Shown here one piece after another: positions 2,727 to 53,433 of a stretch of 64,000 nt of DNA; positions within the stretch are counted from its first letter, which is position 1, and each line of letters opens with the position of its first letter. A program made the position numbers and the translations under genes. The DNA lies in NCBI GenBank assembly GCA_965277805.1, contig OZ255842.1:4704001-4768000 (forward strand), given 5' to 3'. Under the pieces are notes generated by a model that was not told where the DNA came from, searched no databases, and worked only from the letters and a program-made list of their open reading frames with translations. Source of the stretch: Candidatus Lustribacter sp. Its GTDB lineage: Bacteria > Vulcanimicrobiota > Vulcanimicrobiia > Vulcanimicrobiales > Vulcanimicrobiaceae.

Positions 2727-4144
2727 GTGCCGACCTCGATGCGCAGCGCTTCGGCGTCGACCTCGGCGGCCGATGCGATCGCGGTGAGGATCTTCGCGTA
2801 GCCGGTGCAGCGGCAGATGTTGCCGCTGATCGCGCTGCGGATGTCGGCCGTCGCCGGTTCGGGACATTCGTCGATGAGCTTCGCGCCGGCCATGATCATG
2901 CCCGGAATGCAGAAACCGCACTGCACCGCGCCGTGATCGATGAAGGCCTGTTGCACCGGATGCAGCACCGCGCCGTCGGCCAAGCCTTCGATCGTCGTGA
3001 TTGCCGCGCCGTGCGCCTGCGGGGCGGGGACGAGGCACGACATCACCGCGCGGCCGTCGAGCCACATCGTGCACGCGCCGCACTCGCCCTCGGCGCAGCC
3101 TTCTTTCGCGCCGGTGAGGCCGGCAACGTCGCGCAGCGCATCGAGCAGCGAGAGATGCTGCACGTCCTCGAGCGTGTAGTGCCGTCCGTTGATCGTGGTA
3201 TCGACGGTGCCCTCAAACGGCAGCACGGCTTGCGCGGGTGCGGGCGTTTCGAGCAGCACGGGTTCGACGGCGAGCCCGTTGGCTTCGGTGCCGTCGGCGA
3301 TTTGATCGAGCGCGCGTTCCACCAGCGCGGCGACGGTCGTGCGCCGGTAATCCGCCGTCGCGCGGATGTCGTCGATCGGCGCGATCGCCGCAGCGGCTAG
3401 TGACGCCGCGCGCATGCGCGCCGCACGATCGAGCGTGCTCCCGGCGAGCGAGGCTTCGGCTTCCGTGACGCGCACGATCGTCGGCGCGACGCAACCGAGT
3501 GCGATGCGCGCTTCGACGACGCGCGGCCCGTCGAATTCGATCACGATCGCGACGCTGATCACCGAGATCGCCTGCGCTTTGCGCAAGCCGAGTTTGAGAA
3601 AGATGCCGCGGCGCGAGGGACCGAGTTTGCGCACCGAGATCGAGTGCACCAGTTCGCCCGGCGCGAGCGCCGTTTTGCGAAAGCCCGTGCAGAACTCGGC
3701 GATGCCGAGGCTGCGCCGGCCCGCCGCGCCTGCAATTTCGACTTCGGTGTCGAGAACGAACAGCGCCGCGATCGTATCGTTGGCCGGCGACGCGGTGACG
3801 AGATTGCCGGCGATCGTGCCGCGCGCGCGAATTTGCGGCGCGCCGACTTCGGCACACGCTTGAACGAGCGGCAGCGCTTCGCGGCGGAACGTCGCCGATC
3901 CGAGCACGTCGTTGTGCGTGGTGAGCGCGCCCATGGTCAAACGATCCGCGTCTTCGGTGATGAAGCGCAGCTCGGGCTCGAGGGCCGTCAGGTCGATCAG
4001 CTTAGTTGCCTTGTTGCCCCGGCCAAGCTCAACCATAACGTCGGTGCCCCCGGCAATCAGCCGGGTATCGGCGCCCGCGCGGGCGAGTTCGGAGAGAGCG
4101 TCGGCAAGCGAGGTCGGCCGACGATAGACCTCGATCATCTCCAT
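2723..4144 (-). CDS. Xanthine dehydrogenase family fused FAD-binding + (2Fe-2S) subunit
   Basis: N-terminal FAD domain ([19 protein letters not shown]); C-terminal [10 protein letters not shown] and QCGFC...NICRCTGY iron-sulfur motifs. Confidence 0.92.
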
Positions 4145-4254
4145 ATGTTCGGATTTCCCAGTTTCGGCTCTTCTTTCAGATTGTCACATCTGCGTATCTC
4201 CGCACGTGACGATTGGCGCACGGCGACGGAGCGTATGCTCCCCAAAGGGTCATC

Positions 4255-4557
4255 ATGCACCTGACGGATGTCGAGCGGGACAAATTGCTGCTCAGCTATG
4301 CAGCCGACATGGCGTGGCGGCGGAAGGCGCGCGGCGTGAAGCTCAACCATCCGGAATCGATCGCGATCATCGCCTCGTTCGTGCTCGAAGGCGCGCGCGA
4401 CGGGCGCAGCGTGGCCGATCTGATGCAGGCCGGCCGGGCCGTGCTCACGCGCGAAGACGTCATGGAGGGCGTGCCCGAGATGATCGAGTCGGTCCAAGTC
4501 GAGGCGACGTTTCCGGACGGAACCAAACTGGTCACCGTCCACGAGCCGATCCTATGA
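4255..4557 (+). CDS. ureA: Urease gamma subunit
   Basis: [11 protein letters not shown]...RGVKLNHPE...[20 protein letters not shown]. Confidence 0.97.
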
Positions 4558-4829
4558 TTCCCGGTGAAATTTTCGTTCAGGCTGGCGAGGTGGAGCTGAA
4601 GCCCGGGCGCCGCCGCGTCACGCTCACGGTGAGCAACACCGGCGACCGGCCGATCCAAGTCGGATCGCACGCGCACTTCGCCGAGGTCAACAGCGGGCTC
4701 GCGTTCGATCGCGCCGCCGCGCGCAACATGCTGCTCGACATTCCGGCGGGCACGGCGGTGCGCTTCGAGCCCGGCATCGAGCGCCCCGTCGATCTGGTGG
4801 AAGCCGCGGGCGAGAAACGCTTCGCATGA
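4554..4829 (+). CDS. ureB: Urease beta subunit
   Basis: MIPGEI...[15 protein letters not shown]...[18 protein letters not shown] overlap with ureA. Confidence 0.97.
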
Positions 4830-6538
4830 AAATTTCGCGCGAACAGTACGCCCGGCTGTACGGGCCGACGACCGGCGACCGGATGCGCCTCGCCGACACC
4901 GGTCTGATCGTCGAGATCGAACGCGACCTCACCGGCTTCGGCGACGAACTGAGTTTCGGCGGCGGTAAAGTCATTCGCGATGCGATGGGCCAGCATCCGT
5001 CGATCTCGCGCGCCGACGGTGCGCTCGACACCGTCATCACGAACGCGATCGTCATCGACGCCGGCGGTATCTACAAAGCGGACATCGGACTGCGCGACGG
5101 GCGCATCGCCGGCATCGGCAAAGCCGGCAATCCGTACATCATGGACGGCATTACGCCCGGAATGATCGTCGGCGCTTCGACCGAAGCGATTGCGGGCGAA
5201 AGCTTGATCGTCACCGCGGGCGCGATCGACACGCACATCCATTTCATCTCGCCGCAACAGGTCACCGCCGCAATCGGCAGCGGCGTCACGACGATGATCG
5301 GCGGCGGCACGGGGCCCGCATCGGGCACGAACGCAACGACTTGCACGCCCGGCGCGTGGCATCTCGATCAGATGCTGCTGGCCACCGAGTCGCTGCCGGT
5401 GAACGTCGGATTTCTCGGCAAGGGGAATGCGACCGGACTCGCGCCGCTGCGCGAGCAGATCGACGCCGGTTGTCTCGGTCTGAAGCTGCACGAAGACTGG
5501 GGCTCGACCCCACGCGCGATCGACGCCGCCCTCACCGCGGCGGATGAAGCCGACGTGCAAGTGGCGATTCACACCGACACGCTCAACGAGATGGGTTTTC
5601 TCGAAGAGACGATTCGCGCGATCGCCGGCCGCACGATTCACACCTATCACACCGAAGGGGCGGGCGGCGGCCACGCGCCCGACATCATCCGCATCGCCGG
5701 CGAATCGTACGTGCTGCCGTCGTCGACCAATCCGACGCGGCCCTACACCGTCAACACGCTGGCCGAACACCTCGACATGCTGATGGTCTGCCATCATCTC
5801 GATCCGTCGATTCCCGAAGACGTCGCGTTCGCCGACTCGCGCATCCGCGGCGAGACCATCGCGGCCGAGGACGTGCTGCACGATCTCGGCGCGATCAGCA
5901 TGATGTCCTCGGACTCACAGGCGATGGGCCGCGTGCACGAAGTGATCATGCGCACCTGGCAGACCGCGCACAAGATGCGCGTGCAGCGCGGGCCGTTGCC
6001 GGGCGAGCGTGAGGGCAGCGACAACCTGCGCGTGAAGCGATACGTAGCGAAATACACGATCAATCCCGCCATCACCCACGGCATCGGCACGTATGCGGGC
6101 TCGGTCGAGGTGGGGAAGATCGCCGATCTCGTCGTGTGGAAGCCCGCATTCTTCGGCTTTCGGCCCGAACTCGTGATCAAGGGCGGCACGATCGCCTACG
6201 CCGCGATGGGCGATCCGTCGGCATCGATCCCGACGCCGCAGCCCGAGCGCATGCTGCCGATGTGGGGTGCGTTCGGCGCCGCGCCGGCGGCCGGCTCGTT
6301 CACATTCGTTTCGAAGCGCGGCCTCGAGTGCGGGATGTCCGAACGCGTCCGCTCGCGCCGCACGTTCTTGCCGGTGATGAATTGCCGCGCGATCGGCAAG
6401 CGGGATATGGTGCACAACGCTGCGTTACCGCACATCGAGGTCGATCCGAAGACGTACGCGGTGCGCGCCGACGGCGAACTGATGACGTGCGAACCCGCAA
6501 CGGTGCTGCCGCTCGCGCAGCGGTACGCGCTGTTCTGA
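4826..6538 (+). CDS. ureC: Urease alpha subunit
   Basis: [62 protein letters not shown]-terminus [10 protein letters not shown]; Ni ligands intact. Confidence 0.99.
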
Positions 6539-6993
6539 TGTTTCGCCGCATCGACGCCGTGCTCGGCAACCTCGCCACGTTCCCCGTCGGCACGCGCACG
6601 GTGGAACGCTTGCCGGTGGCGAGCAGTGCCATGACCCGCCGGCTCATCCGGCTGCCCTCGACCATCGGCGACCTCGGCCTGATGCTCGAGGGCGAGCAGC
6701 GCCTTCGTGACGGCGACGTGCTCGTGGCGGATGCGACGCGCGTGCTCGCGATCGAGGTCGTGCCGGAAGACGTGTTGATCGCCTATCCCGATTCCATTCC
6801 GCAGGCGGTCGAGATCGCGCACGCGTTCGGCAACCGGCACATTCCGGTCATCCGGGAAGGCGACGCGATCGTGGTGAGTTATGCGGCCCCGCTCGAAGAA
6901 CTGCTCCAACGCAGCGGCGTGCGTTACGAGCGCTGCGCGCGCGTACTGGAACGGCCGTTCGTTTACGCGCACGCCCCGCACACGCACGCATGA
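6538..6993 (+). CDS. ureE: Urease accessory protein UreE
   Basis: LRDGDVL and AHAFGNRH motifs; short His tail HAPHTHA; TGATG overlap with ureC. Confidence 0.88.
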   Translation: MFRRIDAVLGNLATFPVGTRTVERLPVASSAMTRRLIRLPSTIGDLGLMLEGEQRLRDGDVLVADATRVLAIEVVPEDVLIAYPDSIPQAVEIAHAFGNRHIPVIREGDAIVVSYAAPLEELLQRSGVRYERCARVLERPFVYAHAPHTHA

Positions 6994-7661
6994 TCGATCC
7001 GCGTTTTCTGCAGTTGTGCGACAGCGCGTTTCCGAGCGGCGCCTTCTCGCAGTCGTTCGGTCTCGAGACGGCGATCGCAGAACGCGGCATCGCGGATGCG
7101 GCGGCCGTGCGCGCGTGGATCGTCGAATACCTCGAACGCGGCCTGGCGACGTGCGATGCGCGCGCGTTCGTGCTCGGCATGCGCGCCGTCGCGACCGTGG
7201 CTGAACTCGACGGAATGCTGGCGGTCTCGGTGTTTCCCGCCGACGTCCGCGCCGCGAATCGCCGCTTGGCGCGCGCGACGCTCGAAGCGTATCTCGCGAT
7301 GGGGATCGCGGACGAGGCGATCGGTGCGTACCGCGATGCGATTCTGGCCGGCGCCGCGAGCGGTCAGCACGCGCTCGCGTGCATGCTCGGCTACCGCGCG
7401 ATCGGCGCGCGCATCGAAGACGCCGTGTGCGCGTATCTCAGTTCCGCCGCGGCGGCGCTGGCGGCCGTGGCAGCGCGCGCGGTGCCGCTCGGGCAGCGCG
7501 ACGTCGGCGCGCTCTTGTGGTCGCTGCGCGCGCCGATCGCGGAGTTCACGCGCAGCGCCTGCGCGGCGGCGTCGCTCGACGATCTGACCTCGAGTGCGCT
7601 CCACTGCGAGATCGATGCAATGCGGCACGCAGCGCTCGACGCGCGGTTGTTCGCGTCGTGA
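6990..7661 (+). CDS. ureF: Urease accessory protein UreF
   Basis: [21 protein letters not shown]-terminal H...RLFAS. Confidence 0.93.
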
Positions 7662-8269
7662 GCGCGGTGCGCATCGGCGTCGGTGGGCCGGTCGGCGCCG
7701 GGAAGACGGCGCTCGTCGAGCGGCTGGCGCGCGCGTTCTACCCGCGCGTCGATCTGGCTGTCGTGACCAACGACATCTACACGCGCGAGGACGCGCTGAT
7801 CCTGACGCGCAGCGGCTGTTTGCCGCCCGAACGCATCGTCGGCGTGGAAACCGGCGGTTGCCCGCACACCGCGATCCGCGAAGATGCCTCGATGAATCTC
7901 GAAGCGATCGCCGAGCTCGAAGCGCGCTTTCCGCAGCTGCGCCTGGTGATCGTCGAGAGCGGCGGCGACAACCTCGCCGCTACCTTCAGCCCCGATCTCG
8001 CCGACGTGACGATCTACGTCATCGACGTGGCCGGCGGGGACAAGATTCCGGCCAAGGGCGGACCCGGCATCACTAATGCCGATCTGCTCGTGATCAACAA
8101 GATCGACTTGGCACCGCATGTCGGCGCCGATCTCGAACGCATGCGGCGGGATGCGGGCGCCGCCCGCGGAACGCGTCCGTATCTGTTCACCGACATGCGG
8201 CACGGTACCGGACTCGATCCGTTGATGGAATTCGTCGCCCAGGCCGCGCTGCTCGACGCCGCTTCGTGA
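7658..8269 (+). CDS. ureG: Urease accessory GTPase UreG
   Basis: P-loop [38 protein letters not shown] start overlaps ureF stop. Confidence 0.96.
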
Positions 8270-8985
8270 GAAATGCCGGCAGCATCGCGCTGACGTGCGA
8301 TGCGAGCGCGGGCCGCACGCGTCTGGCGACGATTCGTTGCGAGGGGCTCTCGCGCACGAGTCGCGCCTTCGCCGCGCCGCGCGGCGCGATTCGCCTCATG
8401 CTCTCGGCGCTCGGCCCCGGCGTACTGGCCGGCGACCATTTCAGCATCGACGGGGCGCTCGCGGAACGAGCGTCGCTCACCGCATTCGGTCAGATGGCGA
8501 CGCCGGTGTTTGCCGGCGCAGATGTGTCGCAAACGCGCGCGGTCTGGCACGTGGCCGACGGCGCAACGCTCGTCGTTGCGAGCGAACCGCTGCTGCTCGA
8601 ACCCGGTAGCGAGCACGCCGCCGGCGCCTCATTCGCGGTCGAAGGCAGCGGCAGCGCGATCGTGATCGACACGTTCGGCTTGCGCGGTTCGGCGCGGCTG
8701 TCGATGCGCACGCGGGCGACGCTCGACGGGCGCCTCGCGTACCGCGACGCGTACGACATCGCGAGCGGCCTCGACGGCGCATTCGGCACCGTTACGCTGA
8801 TCGCGGCGGCTGCCGATGCGCGCGACGCGTTCCTCGCGCGTGCATCCGCGGTTGCGGCAAACGCGAACGAGGTGCGCATCGGATGCGGCGAGACGGCCGG
8901 TGCCGCGATCGTTCGTTTGCACGGTGCGCGCGTGTGGGACGTGCGCGCCGCGGCCTTGCGCATCGCCGGCGCTACGGGGCCGTGA
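8266..8985 (+). CDS. ureD: Urease accessory protein UreD (divergent)
   Basis: Last gene of the ure operon; GPGVLAGD motif; beta-rich; GTGA overlap with ureG. Confidence 0.75.
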
Positions 8986-21132: not shown

Positions 21133-21726
21133 ATGAGAATAGGGTTCTCTTTCCTGCGCACGCTCGCCGGCGTGACCTCGGCGGTCGTTCCGTTCGCAAT
21201 CGCCGTCCATCTGTTCGCTGAAGGGCTCGCGCTCGGCGCGAGCGCGATGGCGTCCGATTTCTGGCTGCGCCACGCCTACTTGCTTGCGCCGCTCGCCCTC
21301 TCGCTGTGGTCGTTTAGCCGCACCGTCGGCCTCGGTGCCGGCCGTACGGAGATGATCCGGCGCTGCGCGTTCGTGCGCGCGCGCCTGCGGGCCGCCGGCG
21401 CGAGCTCGACCGTCGTTGCGTTCACCGTCTCCAACCTGATCTTCTTCGGCATCACGCAGTTGCTCGAAGGCGTACCAATCGCGACGACCTCGATCGGCAC
21501 CGGCCTCACTGCGGCCGTGCTCGGCGCGCTGTTTTCCGCGCTGGCCATCTTCTTTTGGGGCCGCTCACTCGTCGCTACCGCGCTGGCCGCGGCCGTGCGG
21601 CGCCCGCGCCTGCCCGCGCGTCTCGCGTCCACGATCCGGCGCATCATCGCTGCCCCGCGTGCGGCTGCGAGCACGTTCTCCCTGTTCGTCCCGAATCGTC
21701 CCCCGCCGGCTTCGTCCCCGGCCTGA
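21133..21726 (+). CDS. Membrane protein ending in NRPPP, putative arrest-type leader of the TonB-dependent receptor
   Basis: About 4 hydrophobic segments, basic linker, C-terminal FVPNRPPPASSPA; 35 nt upstream of the receptor. Confidence 0.65.
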   Translation: MRIGFSFLRTLAGVTSAVVPFAIAVHLFAEGLALGASAMASDFWLRHAYLLAPLALSLWSFSRTVGLGAGRTEMIRRCAFVRARLRAAGASSTVVAFTVSNLIFFGITQLLEGVPIATTSIGTGLTAAVLGALFSALAIFFWGRSLVATALAAAVRRPRLPARLASTIRRIIAAPRAAASTFSLFVPNRPPPASSPA

Positions 21727-21761
21727 TCTCAACCACAACTTTCATTTAAGGGGACGTTCCC

Positions 21762-24209
21762 GTGGGTATTTTTCGACGTGCGGCGCGCATTGCGCCGGCA
21801 CTTTGCCTTGTTTGTATTCTCTGTCTATCCGCCTTCGGAAGTGCGCTAGCGCAATCGACGGCATCGCTCTCCGGTCAAGTGACCGTCAACGGTCAGCCCG
21901 TCAAGGGCGCCAACGTCACGGCGGTCGGCAGCAACGTATCGTTGCACGTCCTCACCGACGCGCAGGGGCACTTCACGTTCACGGGCGTGCCGATCGGCAC
22001 GTACGACGTCGACGCGAACGCGCCCGACGGCACCGCATCGCTGCGCGTCGACGTGCCGTCGGCGGGCGCAGTCATCACGATCGGCCTCTCCGGTCTCAAG
22101 GAGATCGGCCGCACGTCGGTCATCTCGCATCCGCCGCTGGGCGGATCGGGGACCGATCTCAACCTCAGCAGCGACGTGCTCACGCACTCGCCGGCCAACG
22201 GCAGCCTGCCGAACTTGCTCTTGCAGCTCCCCGGTGCCGCGCGCGGCGCGAACGGGGTCGTGCACATCAACGGCGATCACGGCGACGTGAACTACATCGT
22301 CGACGGCGTGCCGATTCCGCAAGAGCTCAACCGCAACATCGGAACGGAGTTCGACCCCAACGACCTCGCGTTCATCGAAGCGATCGAAGGCGCATATCCG
22401 GCGCAGTACGGCGAGCGTTTCGCTTCGGTTATCAACGCCAACACGCGCAACGGCGCCGGCGCGCCGGGTATCAACGCGCAATTCGATGCCGGGTCGTTCA
22501 ATAGCTTCGATTCCGACCTTTCGTACCACGCACCGATCGGCACGGGTTCGCTGGTCCTGGCGTCGCGCAACGAGCAGAGCTCGCGCGGGCTCGATCCGCC
22601 GAACCCCGGCTCGCCGCACAACGGCTTCAGCAACACCAACCAGTTCCTGCGCTACACCCAGCCGATCGGTACCGACTTTCTCAACCTCACGCTCAGCCAC
22701 GCCTATCAAACCTACCAGATCCCCAACGACACCGACGGCGGCGAACCGGCCGCAACCGACGACAACGAAACGCAGAACGACTTCTTCGGAACGCTGCAGT
22801 ACCGCCATCCGATCGGCGATCACGGCTCGCTCACGTTGGGGCCGACGTACAAACGCTCGCAGATCCGCGATTTCGGCGATCCGAACAACGACTTCATCTA
22901 CGGTGAAGCGCAGAATCCCGGCGCGCCGGCGGACTGCGCGCTGGCGTTGAGTTCTACCGGCCCGATCGTGGGCGGCATCGTCACGAACCCCGTGCCGAAT
23001 CCGGCCGTCGCGTACTCCAACGCGACGTGCGGCTTCTCGCTCTACGGCAACCGGACGGCGATCGACCTCGGCGGCGTGCTCGACTACGACAACTCGAGCC
23101 CGCATCACGACGTGCGCTTCGGCGGCGTGTACGACGCGACCAACGTCGCGAAAGACTACGAGATCACGCTGCAGCCCGGCAACTTCCTCGCCCCGATTTT
23201 CACTCCGGCCACGCCCGGCGCCGCGTATACCGTGATCGACAACGCACCGAACGTCGGCCATCTCACCGCATTGTATCTGCAAGACTCGTGGAAAATGGGC
23301 GCCTACGAGCTCGACTACGGCCTGCGTCAGGATGCCTTCCTCGTGTCGTCGACCCAGTTTGCGGTCGGCTACGCCCAAACGAGCCCGCGTATCAAGCTCA
23401 CGCGCAACATCGGCCCGCGAGCGAGCGTATACGTGTTCTACGGCCGTTACTTCACGCCGTTCTCGCTCGAGAACGTCTCGCCGCTCGCGGCGTACACGTT
23501 GAATCTGCCGCTGCAGACTTCGGTCGCGCAGTTCGATCTCAAACCCGAGCGAGACTCAACCTACGAGGTCGGCGGACACGTCGGCATCGGCAAGGGCGAT
23601 CTCGGCTTACGCGTGATGCAGAAAGATGCAACCGACCTGATCGACGATACGCAAGTGGGCGTGACGGCCTTGCATCAGGACATCAACTACGCGCAGGGGC
23701 GCATCGCAACGCAATCGGCGTACTACCAGCTCGGCTTCGGCCAAGGCAGCCGCGTCTACGCCTCCGCCACGCACACGTACTCGGTGAACAAGGGCTGCGA
23801 AACGCAACTTTTGGCGCCGTGTTTCGGTCAGCCCGACGATTGGACGCCGGCCGATCACGATCAGCGGGTCGACATCTCATCGGGAATCATCGCCAACGAA
23901 CGTAACGGCGGGTGGTTCGCCTTTGACGGCGAGTACGGCAGCGGTCTATCGACGGGGCTCAACCCGACCGGCGGCATCACGTGCGCGGGACCGGGCTACA
24001 CCGCGAACATCGGCGGACCGTGTAAATTCACGCCGCATCTGACGTTCGATGCGGAAAAGGGTGTGCCGTTGGGAACTGGGGTCGTGTTGACACTCCGGAT
24101 CCAGAATCTGCTCAACGATCAGTATCAGGTGACCTACCTCAACGCGCAGGGCAACCATTACGCGCCGCCCCGCACGTTTCAAGTCGGTCTCCGCATCAGC
24201 GGAAAGTAG
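21762..24209 (+). CDS. TonB-dependent receptor with N-terminal carboxypeptidase-regulatory-like domain
   Basis: Signal peptide; LSGQVT...TDAQGHFTF; plug YIVDGVP, GAYPAQYG; LYLQDSW, LKPE; C-terminal NLLN...PRTFQVGLR. Confidence 0.9.
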   Translation: MGIFRRAARIAPALCLVCILCLSAFGSALAQSTASLSGQVTVNGQPVKGANVTAVGSNVSLHVLTDAQGHFTFTGVPIGTYDVDANAPDGTASLRVDVPSAGAVITIGLSGLKEIGRTSVISHPPLGGSGTDLNLSSDVLTHSPANGSLPNLLLQLPGAARGANGVVHINGDHGDVNYIVDGVPIPQELNRNIGTEFDPNDLAFIEAIEGAYPAQYGERFASVINANTRNGAGAPGINAQFDAGSFNSFDSDLSYHAPIGTGSLVLASRNEQSSRGLDPPNPGSPHNGFSNTNQFLRYTQPIGTDFLNLTLSHAYQTYQIPNDTDGGEPAATDDNETQNDFFGTLQYRHPIGDHGSLTLGPTYKRSQIRDFGDPNNDFIYGEAQNPGAPADCALALSSTGPIVGGIVTNPVPNPAVAYSNATCGFSLYGNRTAIDLGGVLDYDNSSPHHDVRFGGVYDATNVAKDYEITLQPGNFLAPIFTPATPGAAYTVIDNAPNVGHLTALYLQDSWKMGAYELDYGLRQDAFLVSSTQFAVGYAQTSPRIKLTRNIGPRASVYVFYGRYFTPFSLENVSPLAAYTLNLPLQTSVAQFDLKPERDSTYEVGGHVGIGKGDLGLRVMQKDATDLIDDTQVGVTALHQDINYAQGRIATQSAYYQLGFGQGSRVYASATHTYSVNKGCETQLLAPCFGQPDDWTPADHDQRVDISSGIIANERNGGWFAFDGEYGSGLSTGLNPTGGITCAGPGYTANIGGPCKFTPHLTFDAEKGVPLGTGVVLTLRIQNLLNDQYQVTYLNAQGNHYAPPRTFQVGLRISGK

Positions 24210-52128: not shown

Positions 52129-53433
52129 ATGGCCGCGATCGCCCCCGGCGGAGCGGCCCTCGGTTCACCGCTCTCGATCCAAGCCACCGCGCGCATTCGA
52201 GAGATCCTCGAAGGCCGCCGGCGCGGACTGCGCGCGGTGCTGCCGCTCGCCGGACCGGCGGTGGTCGCTTCGGTCGCCTACATGGATCCGGGGAATTTTG
52301 CAACGAACATCGCGGCCGGCTCGAAGTTCGGTTATGGGCTGCTCTGGGTCGTACTGCTTGCAAATGCGGTCGCGATGTTGTATCAGGCGATGTCGGCGAA
52401 GCTCGGCATCGTCACCAATCGCAATCTGGCCGAACTTAGCCGGGCGCATTTCCCGAAGCCGGCCGTGGTCGCGATGTGGCTCGCGAGTGAGGTCGCGGCG
52501 ATGGCCACCGACCTCGCCGAGTTCGTCGGCGGCGCGCTGGGCCTTTCGCTCTTGCTGCATTTGCCGCTGCTCTACGGCATGGCCGTCACCGCGGTGTTCA
52601 CCTATGTCATCCTATGCGTCGAGCCGAGCGGATTTCGTAAGATCGAACTGATCATCGGCTCACTGGTGCTCGCGATCGGCGCGTGTTATCTGCTCGAATT
52701 GTTCATCGTGCCGGCCGACTGGGGTGCCGTGGCCCTGCACTCGGTGCTGCCGCAATTCGGCGGCCCCGGAGCGGTCGCGCTCGCCGCGGGCATCGTCGGC
52801 GCAACGATCATGCCGCACGCGATCTTTCTGCACTCCGGGCTCACGCAAGATCGCGCACCCGCTCGGAGCGACGCCGAGCGGCGTTCGCTCGTTCGCTATT
52901 CGAATCGCGAGGTCGCGATCGCGCTATCGTTCGCGGGCTTGATCAACGTCGCGATGGTCGTGATGGCGGCCGCCGCGTTTCACGCGGGCCATAGCGGCGT
53001 GGCAGAGATCCAGACGGCGTATTACACGATGGTCCCGCTGCTCGGCGCCGCGGCCGGACTGGTGTTTCTCATCTCGCTGATGGCATCGGGTATCTCGAGT
53101 TCGGTCGTCGGGACGATGGCGGGGCAAATGATCATGCAAGGCTTCGTCGGCTTCAGCATTCCGGTCTGGCTACGGCGCACCATCACGATGGTACCGGCGT
53201 TCGTCGTGATCGCCCTCGGCATCAACGTGACCAACGCGCTTGTGGTCAGCCAGATTGCCCTGAGTATCGTGCTGCCTATCCCGATGGTTGCGCTGCTCGT
53301 GCTCAGCCGAAAACGTTCCTTGATGGGCAGCTTTACTGCCGGCCCGACGTTGCTCACATTTGCTGCTGTCGCGATCGTGGCGATCGTCGGGCTCAACGCG
53401 GTGCTCGTGGTCGGGGCGATCGGAGGGAATTAA
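52129..53433 (+). CDS. mntH: Nramp family divalent metal (Mn2+) transporter
   Basis: AYMDPGN, ATDLAEFVG, GATIMPHAIFLHS, GTMAGQMIMQGF. Confidence 0.95.
   Translation: MAAIAPGGAALGSPLSIQATARIREILEGRRRGLRAVLPLAGPAVVASVAYMDPGNFATNIAAGSKFGYGLLWVVLLANAVAMLYQAMSAKLGIVTNRNLAELSRAHFPKPAVVAMWLASEVAAMATDLAEFVGGALGLSLLLHLPLLYGMAVTAVFTYVILCVEPSGFRKIELIIGSLVLAIGACYLLELFIVPADWGAVALHSVLPQFGGPGAVALAAGIVGATIMPHAIFLHSGLTQDRAPARSDAERRSLVRYSNREVAIALSFAGLINVAMVVMAAAAFHAGHSGVAEIQTAYYTMVPLLGAAAGLVFLISLMASGISSSVVGTMAGQMIMQGFVGFSIPVWLRRTITMVPAFVVIALGINVTNALVVSQIALSIVLPIPMVALLVLSRKRSLMGSFTAGPTLLTFAAVAIVAIVGLNAVLVVGAIGGN

Follow-up and report, generated by a model that had tools for sequence, protein, structure and literature searches.

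A conserved four-helix membrane protein ending in Arg-Pro-Pro-Pro as a probable arrest-type leader of a TonB-dependent receptor gene in Vulcanimicrobiota

The window analysed here is a stretch of 64,000 nucleotides (nt) from a genome of Candidatus Lustribacter sp. (assembly GCA_965277805.1, contig OZ255842.1, positions 4,704,001 to 4,768,000), a member of the Eremiobacterota/Vulcanimicrobiota (WPS-2), and coordinates are those of this window unless stated otherwise. Two consecutive genes on its forward strand are the subject of this study. The first, the leader gene (21133–21726, +), translates into a predicted inner-membrane protein of 197 residues with four helices, belonging to an unnamed family and ending in FSLFVPNRPPPASSPA before the stop codon (last residues NRPPPASSPA). 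Its proposed arrest site, Arg189-Pro-Pro-Pro, is encoded at 21697–21708 (+), with Arg189 at 21697–21699 and Pro190 to Pro192 at 21700–21708, and the stop codon occupies 21724–21726. After a gap of 35 nt follows the GTG start (21762) of a TonB-dependent receptor of 815 residues (21762–24209, +), recognized through Pfam, with a signal peptide, a CarboxypepD_reg domain, a plug and a barrel. The ribosome-binding site of the receptor, AAGGGGACG, lies with the start codon at 21748–21764 (+) and holds the Shine-Dalgarno (SD) sequence AAGGGGA at 21748–21754. A preliminary description of the locus had reported a multispanning open reading frame (ORF) of 197 residues ending in RPPP, 35 nt ahead of the receptor, and both the coordinates and the translation agree with it.

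The AlphaFold2 model of the leader, built on a 103-sequence alignment, has a predicted local distance difference test score of 87 and a predicted template modelling score of 0.76. It displays four long helices (residues 19–39, 48–65, 90–112 and 121–155), an amphipathic helix (71–88) and a poorly ordered tail of low confidence (156–197). Lys and Arg residues number 2 at the N-terminus, 1 in loop 1, 6 in loop 2, 0 in loop 3 and 8 in the tail, a distribution consistent with both ends inside (N-in/C-in) and with the basic loop and tail in the cytoplasm. As the preliminary description had noted, the motifs HLFAE and RHAY are present and CxxC is absent, Cys78 being the single Cys of the protein. His26 and Glu30, the outer residues of HLFAE (21208–21222, +), form a candidate ligand or polar site in the first transmembrane (TM) helix; His47 of RHAY (21271–21273, +) starts TM2 on the periplasmic side, and Glu112-Gly113-Val-Pro-Ile (21466–21480, +) marks the periplasmic end of TM3. 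The leader matches no family in Pfam or NCBIfam. A ZIP identity (PF02535) was considered and rejected, as its score in hmmscan (run up to E 0.1) was 15 bits against a cut-off of 35.1 (E 0.015) and the match covers just residues 14–44, aligned to profile positions 176–206. Foldseek comparison of the model with the PDB returned nothing at E ≤ 0.001, just generic helical bundles.

The C-terminal motif is the most telling feature of the leader family. In a word-indexed search, 99 of 103 near-length homologues carry RPPP, 3–73 and mostly 5 residues ahead of the stop; of the other four, three are truncated or odd and one, a fragment, has NRPRP in its place. As the motif is conserved across the family, its presence in the window leader is more than chance. 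A profile search of 1.84 billion representatives recovered 168 clusters of the family at E ≤ 0.001. Among the best 150 of these, after 13 fragments without a C-terminus had been set aside, 137 could be read at this position: RPPP occurs in 129, RAPP in 5 and LPPP in 3. R-[PA]-P-P is thus kept in 134 of 137 representatives, as well as in all 73 unique loci described below, which bears out the conservation of R-[AGP]-P-P near the stop that the preliminary description had put forward as a check. At the second motif position Ala, giving the canonical RAPP, is the sole substitute. The rare LPPP members (P0144, P0158, P0167) and the RPRP fragment (P0105) are possible natural loss-of-arrest variants or sequencing errors.

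Alignments of different depth place this conservation against a variable background. Among 12 sequences with 25–74% identity to the window leader (alignment A1), the invariant columns are H26, E30, H47, Y49, L50, T108, E112, G113, P115 and R189 to P192. In a broader alignment (A3) of 103 full-length sequences, chosen for having the motif, H26 is retained in 87, E30 in 93, H47 in 96 and E112 in 97, and the spacing from E112 to Arg189 stays at 76–80 residues in 90 sequences despite a mean column identity of 23%. The residues ahead of the motif vary by subfamily (FSLFVPN, FSFRY, LFN, LAN, LGN or ARGN), those following it are not conserved across the family, and the tail beyond it measures 0–13 residues in A3. 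The full set H26-E30-H47-E112 is retained at 66 of the 73 loci. Close homologues are labelled Candidatus Lustribacter, and the family was found in 97 of 401 sampled genomes of the phylum, confined to two taxonomic families (70 of 296 and 26 of 30 genomes) and not found in the other 19 sampled. Without five unpublished matching genomes (G245, G288, G247, G352 and G036), these counts become 92 of 396 overall, and 68 of 294 and 23 of 27 in the two families.

At the C-terminus of many leaders stand LAA, IAA, VAA or comparable non-polar residues (YRPPPLAA or NRPPPIAA before the stop, for instance), which resemble C-terminal degradation signals; the same codons are constrained by the RNA pairing described below. 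At four loci (L027, L029, L036, L076) the usual stop is out of frame, so that the leader frame continues for 36–43 residues past RPPP and overlaps the receptor gene by 67 nt.

Several published experiments bear on whether RPPP can serve as an arrest core. In ApdA and ApdP neither the Arg nor the third Pro of RAPP can be replaced, and an Ala-to-Gly exchange is fully permissive (Fujiwara et al. 2025, PMC12992588). The exchange of RAPP for RPPP gave near-wild-type arrest of ApdP in Bacillus subtilis (2.4 vs 1.9 units) and intermediate arrest in Escherichia coli and in ApdA, and random-library screens yielded RxPP with G, A, S or P at the second position (PMC12992588). RPPP is also the strongest of the XPPP stalls, both in vitro and in E. 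coli deleted for efp, and is under-represented in that organism (Starosta et al. 2014, PMC4176338). A similar depletion is seen in the present genome, with the reservation that the proteome used was a crude set of 5,026 ORFs from a simple caller: the bias of RPPP (0.75) is the lowest of 12 XPPP motifs tested, the others ranging from 1.2 to 5.0, and RAPP, RGPP and RAGP reach 0.27, 0.085 and 0.28.

The order of the two genes is conserved to the same degree as the motif. We examined 78 loci, of which five were duplicates, leaving 73 unique ones; the related-loci search started from a closer alignment (A2) and reaches the subfamily of the window leader only. All 73 carry R[PA]PP near the leader end, two of them as RAPP. 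A homologue of the window receptor (phmmer, E ≤ 1e-54) is encoded by 69 of the 70 downstream ORFs first called, and at three more loci (L115, L116, L111) the receptor is in pieces or cut by the contig end, which brings the total directly downstream to 72 of 73. The adjacency to a TonB-dependent receptor that had been anticipated for homologues is therefore close to universal in this set. No sigma-70-like promoter was found between 20800 and 24500, the 35-nt gap included, although the promoter consensus of this phylum may differ; a receptor promoter in that gap had been named in the preliminary description as grounds for abandoning the leader idea. No terminator was found between the genes. In one metatranscriptome run, a 191-nt contig matches 21435–21625 with 3 differences and none bridges the leader-receptor junction; since DNA may have been present in the library, the contig is no evidence on transcription.

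The receptor itself is similarly well preserved. The Cys pairs 392/423 and 679/687 and the motif D698-H699-[DE]-Q701, pointed out earlier as Cys pairs and a DHDQR motif, are kept in 64–66 of 66 aligned orthologues, which also have ten near-invariant His in common. Its closest relatives in the PDB, YncD and PqqU, align over 87 residues of the plug only (E 4e-6), and its NCBIfam matches all lie far under the cut-off; none of its characterised relatives is close.

A second conserved element resides in the messenger RNA, where the end of the leader gene is complementary to the ribosome-binding site of the receptor. The sequence CGTCCCC occurs twice in the window, in the Arg-Pro codons (21697–21703) and in the tail codons Ser194-Ser195-Pro196 (21713–21719, +), and both copies are complementary to GGGGACG of the SD region (21750–21756). 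In the minimum free energy fold, the second copy pairs with the SD as an anti-SD arm, the Pro codons pair with the start-codon region, and the spacer between leader stop and SD (21727–21747, +), which is free of G and rich in C, T and A, forms the loop of the hairpin. Among relatives both the tail and the SD vary, and they vary together. The arms found there pair tail CATCCC with GGGATG on the SD side, GGTCCCT with AGGGACC, GGATCCCTTCA with TGAAGGGATCC, CCTCTCGA with TCGAGAGG, CTCTCCAAGTC with GACTTGGAGAG, and CCTTTCCG with CGGAAAGG. The four loci with extended leader frames retain this pairing as well (GGTCCCT:AGGGACC or GGATCCCTTCA:TGAAGGGATCC).

The strength of the pairing was assessed at the 63 loci with a confident receptor start (10 with an uncertain or missing start were set aside), dereplicated at 80% identity to 56. 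A swap test compared the duplex energies of two segments, one of 36 nt starting at the Arg codon and one of 24 nt that ends at the start codon. Cognate combinations averaged −17.4 kcal/mol and non-cognate ones −11.7 kcal/mol, with none of 20,000 permutations as low as the cognate mean and a mean rank fraction of 0.13; control segments 36 and 72 nt upstream gave −11.7 and −11.4 kcal/mol. None of the 56 loci has fewer than 4 nt of the −15 to −5 region ahead of the start paired with the leader tail. For 15 sequences of the window type, RNAalifold yields a 6-bp consensus helix (21713–21718 with 21751–21756) that is 95.5% paired and shows compensatory changes at 3 of its 6 pairs. None of 500 shuffles reached its paired fraction or its covariation score, and slid controls were at most 58% paired.

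The helix arm spans, in median, nt 11–26.5 as numbered from the Arg codon's first base. It thus runs from the A-site codon into the tail, and most of it falls within the roughly 15 nt covered by a ribosome on the 3′ side of its P-site. The distance from the Arg codon to the receptor start is 56–129 nt, and a ribosome standing at RPPP would therefore not block the ribosome-binding site of the receptor. When such a footprint was imposed at RPPP in modelling, mean SD accessibility over the 56 loci rose from 0.22 to 0.35; with the footprint 30 nt upstream it was 0.23.

Taken with the gene order, these features can be best explained by control of receptor translation from within the leader, and we consider it likely that the 197-residue ORF is a regulatory leader of the RAPP-like arrest class, a reading supported by conservation, synteny and RNA covariation. 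In the stall register borrowed from RAPP (Fujiwara et al. 2025), the ribosome making the leader would pause with Arg-Pro-Pro in the P-site (codon 21703–21705) and the last Pro-tRNA in the A-site (21706–21708). TM4, which stops 36 residues ahead of the P-site Pro, would at that moment be just emerging from the ribosome. The paused ribosome would cover approximately 21691–21718 and with it most of the CGTCCCC arm, so that the receptor ribosome-binding site would be open only while a leader ribosome sits on or passes the tail. Upon release of the pause, termination would follow five codons on, the hairpin would re-form and receptor translation would fall. By analogy with CruR, discussed below, release would probably be brought about by ligand binding, or by folding or insertion, of the nascent four-helix bundle through His26, Glu30, His47 and Glu112. 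An abundant substrate metal would in this way switch its own importer off.

A number of observations weigh against this interpretation. Some tail:SD pairing comes free, because Pro codons are C-rich and SDs are G-rich, and the control pairing of the tail with the receptor coding start reaches −15.2 kcal/mol. The single-sequence fold of the window region is unexceptional (z = −1.2). In the window the footprint raises modelled SD accessibility only a little (0.22 to 0.30), the rise is greater than 0.2 in just 18 of 56 loci and one locus shows a fall; three loci (L031, L080, L102) have poor tail:SD pairing. The motif has its exceptions in the three LPPP representatives and the RPRP fragment, and L117 stands alone among the 73 loci in having no receptor. 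In the leader model, H26 and E30 are found in the core of TM1 but H47 and E112 at periplasmic helix ends, and the window copy's own neighbours give no clue to a metal. Moreover, this genome encodes elongation factor P (EF-P), a factor that in E. coli relieves stalling at RPPP (PMC4176338); on the other side of this last point, arrests at RAPP/RGPP were observed with EF-P present (PMC12992588) and the regulation by CruR is independent of EF-P (Roy et al. 2022, PMC9426467). To these points the post-stop hairpins of one subfamily can be added, which are taken up with transcriptional control below.

The closest known counterpart is CruR (Bp2923, DUF2946/PF11162) of Bordetella pertussis, the leader of cruR-bfrG-bp2921 (PMC9426467), whose arrest has been toeprinted (PMC12992588). 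CruR carries RAPP three residues from its end and a CXXC 45 residues from that motif, with a TonB transporter downstream; its stall keeps expression on and copper relieves the stall, acting through Rho, and genes for ScoC (SCO1), PcuAC, CopC and AhpC_TSA are syntenic (PMC9426467). The present leader likewise heads an operon with a TonB-dependent transporter, has R-x-P-P as an invariant motif shortly ahead of its stop codon, and keeps a conserved, putative ligand site whose distance to that motif is fixed. Its relatives are syntenic with SCO1, PCuAC, CopC and AhpC/TSA genes, and the expected logic, a stall that turns the receptor on and a ligand that relieves it, would be the same. The differences are nonetheless considerable. 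The leader does not match PF11162 (hmmscan, E up to 0.1), and four homologous and two paralogue-type leaders match no Pfam family at E ≤ 0.001. It has four TM helices in an N-in/C-in arrangement where CruR has a signal peptide or a single N-in/C-out anchor, and RPPP instead of RAPP. CxxC is missing from the window leader, and in the relatives that have one it lies about 75 rather than 45 residues from the motif. The gap to the receptor is 35 nt, compared to 162 bp in B. pertussis, and the conserved anti-SD:SD helix points to translational control over Rho-dependent termination. The earlier suggestion of a larger, CxxC-less variant of the CruR theme holds up in this form: distant family members have CP[FLM]C beside copper or thiol genes, and the clade of the window has lost the Cys.

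Further parallels are found among small secretory or membrane proteins with RAPP or RGPP, which lie upstream of genes for TonB receptors, YcnI, PCu(A)C and PepSY proteins (PMC12992588). The leader resembles this class in the C-terminal position of the motif within a small membrane protein, in a co-directional metal-related gene downstream and in the depletion of the motif class from the proteome; with an invariant Arg and last two Pro near the C-terminus, TM segments and a co-directional downstream gene, it has the sequence traits of the class. It shares a four-TM architecture and conserved His with SLIV_18480 and SLIV_27375 of Streptomyces lividans, four-TM arrest peptides from a class in which arrest of such examples has been seen in vivo as well as in vitro (PMC12992588). 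The ORFs collected in that survey were limited to those with RAPP or RGPP, RPPP appears nowhere as a string in its main text, and its TonB-related class consists nearly entirely of signal-peptide proteins (PMC12992588), different from the four-TM leader of Eremiobacterota described here. Incidental EF-P-dependent polyproline stalls (PMC4176338) involve the same four residues inside ordinary proteins; the leader RPPP, unlike these, is invariant, C-terminal and coupled to a predicted RNA switch. Our literature search, supplements aside, found no description of a natural RPPP leader or of the present family.

On the RNA side, the arrangement recalls SecM-secA, MifM-yidC2 and VemP-secDF2, in which a ribosome stalled close to the 3′ end of the first ORF opens the hairpin that otherwise masks the ribosome-binding site of the next gene. 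Insertion force is known to act on monitors of the MifM/SecM type. In the present case the SD is likewise paired with mRNA that a stalled ribosome would occupy, the modelled opening being modest. Unlike in the SecM, MifM and VemP systems, the downstream gene encodes an outer-membrane importer and not secretion or insertion machinery, and the core is RPPP.

The main alternative is that the ORF encodes an ordinary stable inner-membrane partner of the receptor, with a metal-binding or redox function, in which RPPP is a protein motif and the tail:SD helix merely couples the ratio of the two gene products. The confident four-helix bundle with its conserved polar residues exceeds what most leader peptides offer, the receptor co-evolves with the leader as a fixed pair, and the CxxC of relatives sits at a helix end as in thiol-redox membrane proteins, near Redoxin and DsbD genes. 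These features would suit a stable protein, but the pattern at the motif does not: only RPPP and RAPP are tolerated, with the Arg and the last two Pro invariant, the upstream residues variable and the stop 0–13 residues away in the aligned full-length set. Such variation at a fixed C-terminal place is the pattern of an arrest motif and not of a binding motif. In addition, the helix arm falls exactly in the ribosome footprint of the motif, and four-TM RAPP/RGPP proteins upstream of metal, thioredoxin and ECF-sigma (extracytoplasmic function sigma) genes have been shown to arrest (PMC12992588). We therefore regard a partner protein devoid of leader function as unlikely, bearing in mind that the two roles are not exclusive and both may hold.

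Less probable still is a CruR-like scheme in which the stalled ribosome keeps Rho (or an intrinsic terminator) from ending the transcript ahead of the receptor gene, with SD unmasking as a secondary effect. This mechanism has been demonstrated for CruR-bfrG (PMC9426467), and the 21-nt post-stop spacer is G-free and C/T-rich, as a Rho-dependent scheme might have it. Furthermore, in a subfamily with gaps of 53–83 nt (L018, L019, L024), a GC-rich hairpin stands right past the leader stop, followed by a T-run in L018, which hints at transcription attenuation besides SD pairing. The conserved and covarying element, in contrast, is the pairing with the SD; the gap here is far shorter than that of B. 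pertussis, and the scan showed no terminator-like site from leader to receptor. The spacer itself, free of G in a genome rich in G+C and matched by G-poor, C/T-rich spacers in relatives, may simply be a hairpin loop, or else a 30S standby site or a Rho-loading site. We consider it very improbable that the pause reports, instead of a metal, the capacity to translate polyproline (through EF-P activity or the supply of proline) or to insert proteins into the membrane. In favour of this view, RPPP gives the strongest of the EF-P-dependent stalls in E. coli (PMC4176338), the genome has EF-P, and TM4 ends at a distance from the P-site Pro where insertion force could act. Against it, there is no obvious reason why an importer of the outer membrane should answer to EF-P or to an insertase. 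A ligand is indicated by the conserved His/Glu (and Cys) positions and by the genes of copper, thiol and Zn/Mn type that adjoin relatives, and CruR itself works independently of EF-P.

If the leader is indeed an arrest-type regulator, the genes surrounding its relatives offer some indication of what it might sense. We scanned 140 ORFs behind the receptor at unique loci with a complete receptor and classified the 73 loci by sensor type, counting as copper genes SCO1, PCuAC, CopCD and CusF, as thiol-redox genes Redoxin/AhpC-TSA, DsbD and MauE, and as Zn/Mn-type genes Fur+ZnuA+ABC-3, Nramp and cation efflux. Copper genes were found behind the receptor at 8 loci and thiol-redox genes at 9. At the 31 loci whose leader has CxxC after Glu-Gly, copper genes number 4, thiol-redox genes 7 and Zn/Mn-type genes 0; at the 38 loci without Cys the corresponding numbers are 3, 1 and 6, and at the 4 loci with one Cys they are 1, 1 and 0. 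As the loci are related and most neighbours uninformative, this association is a trend only. CxxC, present at 31 of 73 loci about 75 residues ahead of the motif, does not occur in the clade of the window. In distant members it takes the form CP[FLM]C straight after the invariant Glu-Gly, giving EGCP[FLM]C at the place of Glu112-Gly113-Val-Pro-Ile, and these leaders adjoin SCO1, PCuAC, CusF or thiol-redox genes. In G005, a genome of the same genus, a Fur-family gene, ZnuA and an ABC-3 permease follow the module on the same strand.

This distribution of Cys suggests that the Cys-less clade of the window senses something other than Cu(I), with Zn or Mn probably likelier than Cu by analogy with the neighbours of its relatives. 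A more far-reaching proposal, which we hold as tentative and somewhat doubtful, is that the family would be the first non-copper nascent-chain switch, probably responding to Zn or Mn through an intramembrane/periplasmic His-Glu-His-Glu site before the sensor has left the ribosome. A natural RPPP core, interchangeable with RAPP over evolution, would serve to open the ribosome-binding site of a dedicated importer in the outer membrane, and loss of Cys would have retuned the sensor from copper, the presumed ligand of the CxxC clades beside SCO1, PCuAC and CusF, to other metals.

Metal-sensing arrest leaders that gate uptake genes have been described in 2022–2025 only, for copper and with the motifs RAPP and RGPP. 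To these the present family would add a natural, invariant RPPP core that searches for RAPP/RGPP motifs would miss, a structured four-helix putative sensor with a conserved His/Glu set, and a well-supported translational read-out by anti-SD:SD unmasking instead of a Rho-dependent one. It would also add an apparent switch of ligand type within one family and, from a phylum of which very few members are in culture, a dedicated TonB-dependent receptor of high divergence. As a test system, it may help to address a possible EF-P resistance of RPPP arrest in the right context and the release of a stall by a ligand-bound nascent membrane protein.

In the window itself, the neighbours of the module are an MFS (major facilitator superfamily) transporter, an HbpS-like protein, Peripla_BP_6 proteins and an FAD (flavin adenine dinucleotide) monooxygenase. 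A urease cluster lies 12–17 kb upstream of the locus (3366–8985; UreC 4826–6538, UreF 6990–7661, UreD 8266–8985). The link to nickel supply for urease that had been raised as a speculation finds no footing in this arrangement, as the urease genes are separated from the module by unrelated genes and no nickel or urease gene occurs downstream of the module in the loci examined. An Nramp (MntH-like) gene is located 28 kb downstream (52129–53433, +), and in four related loci an Nramp gene lies right behind the receptor in convergent orientation.

Some relatives harbor leader-receptor modules in tandem, as seen at L021 (2926–3645, −), L020 (11431–12102, +) and L115 (two copies, 3 kb apart). The second leader type of these tandem modules ends in IA[NS]RPPP, again ahead of a TonB-dependent receptor, and is a distant paralogue of the leader family (hhalign probability 93.6%, E 2e-7). 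Outside the window, the same genome contains a second arrest-type leader, this one ending in RAPP (G000:C1:2661741–2665069, corresponding to locus L128, 242–3570, minus strand). Homology of this leader to the RPPP family was considered and not found (hhalign probability 5.6%). It is a multi-TM protein of 224 residues with a Met-rich stretch, ending in GRGLRAPPSFVR before the stop. A CusF-like gene (PF11604) begins 48 nt downstream, next comes a gene for a TonB-dependent receptor with a CarboxypepD_reg domain, and a divergent gene encodes an ECF sigma factor.

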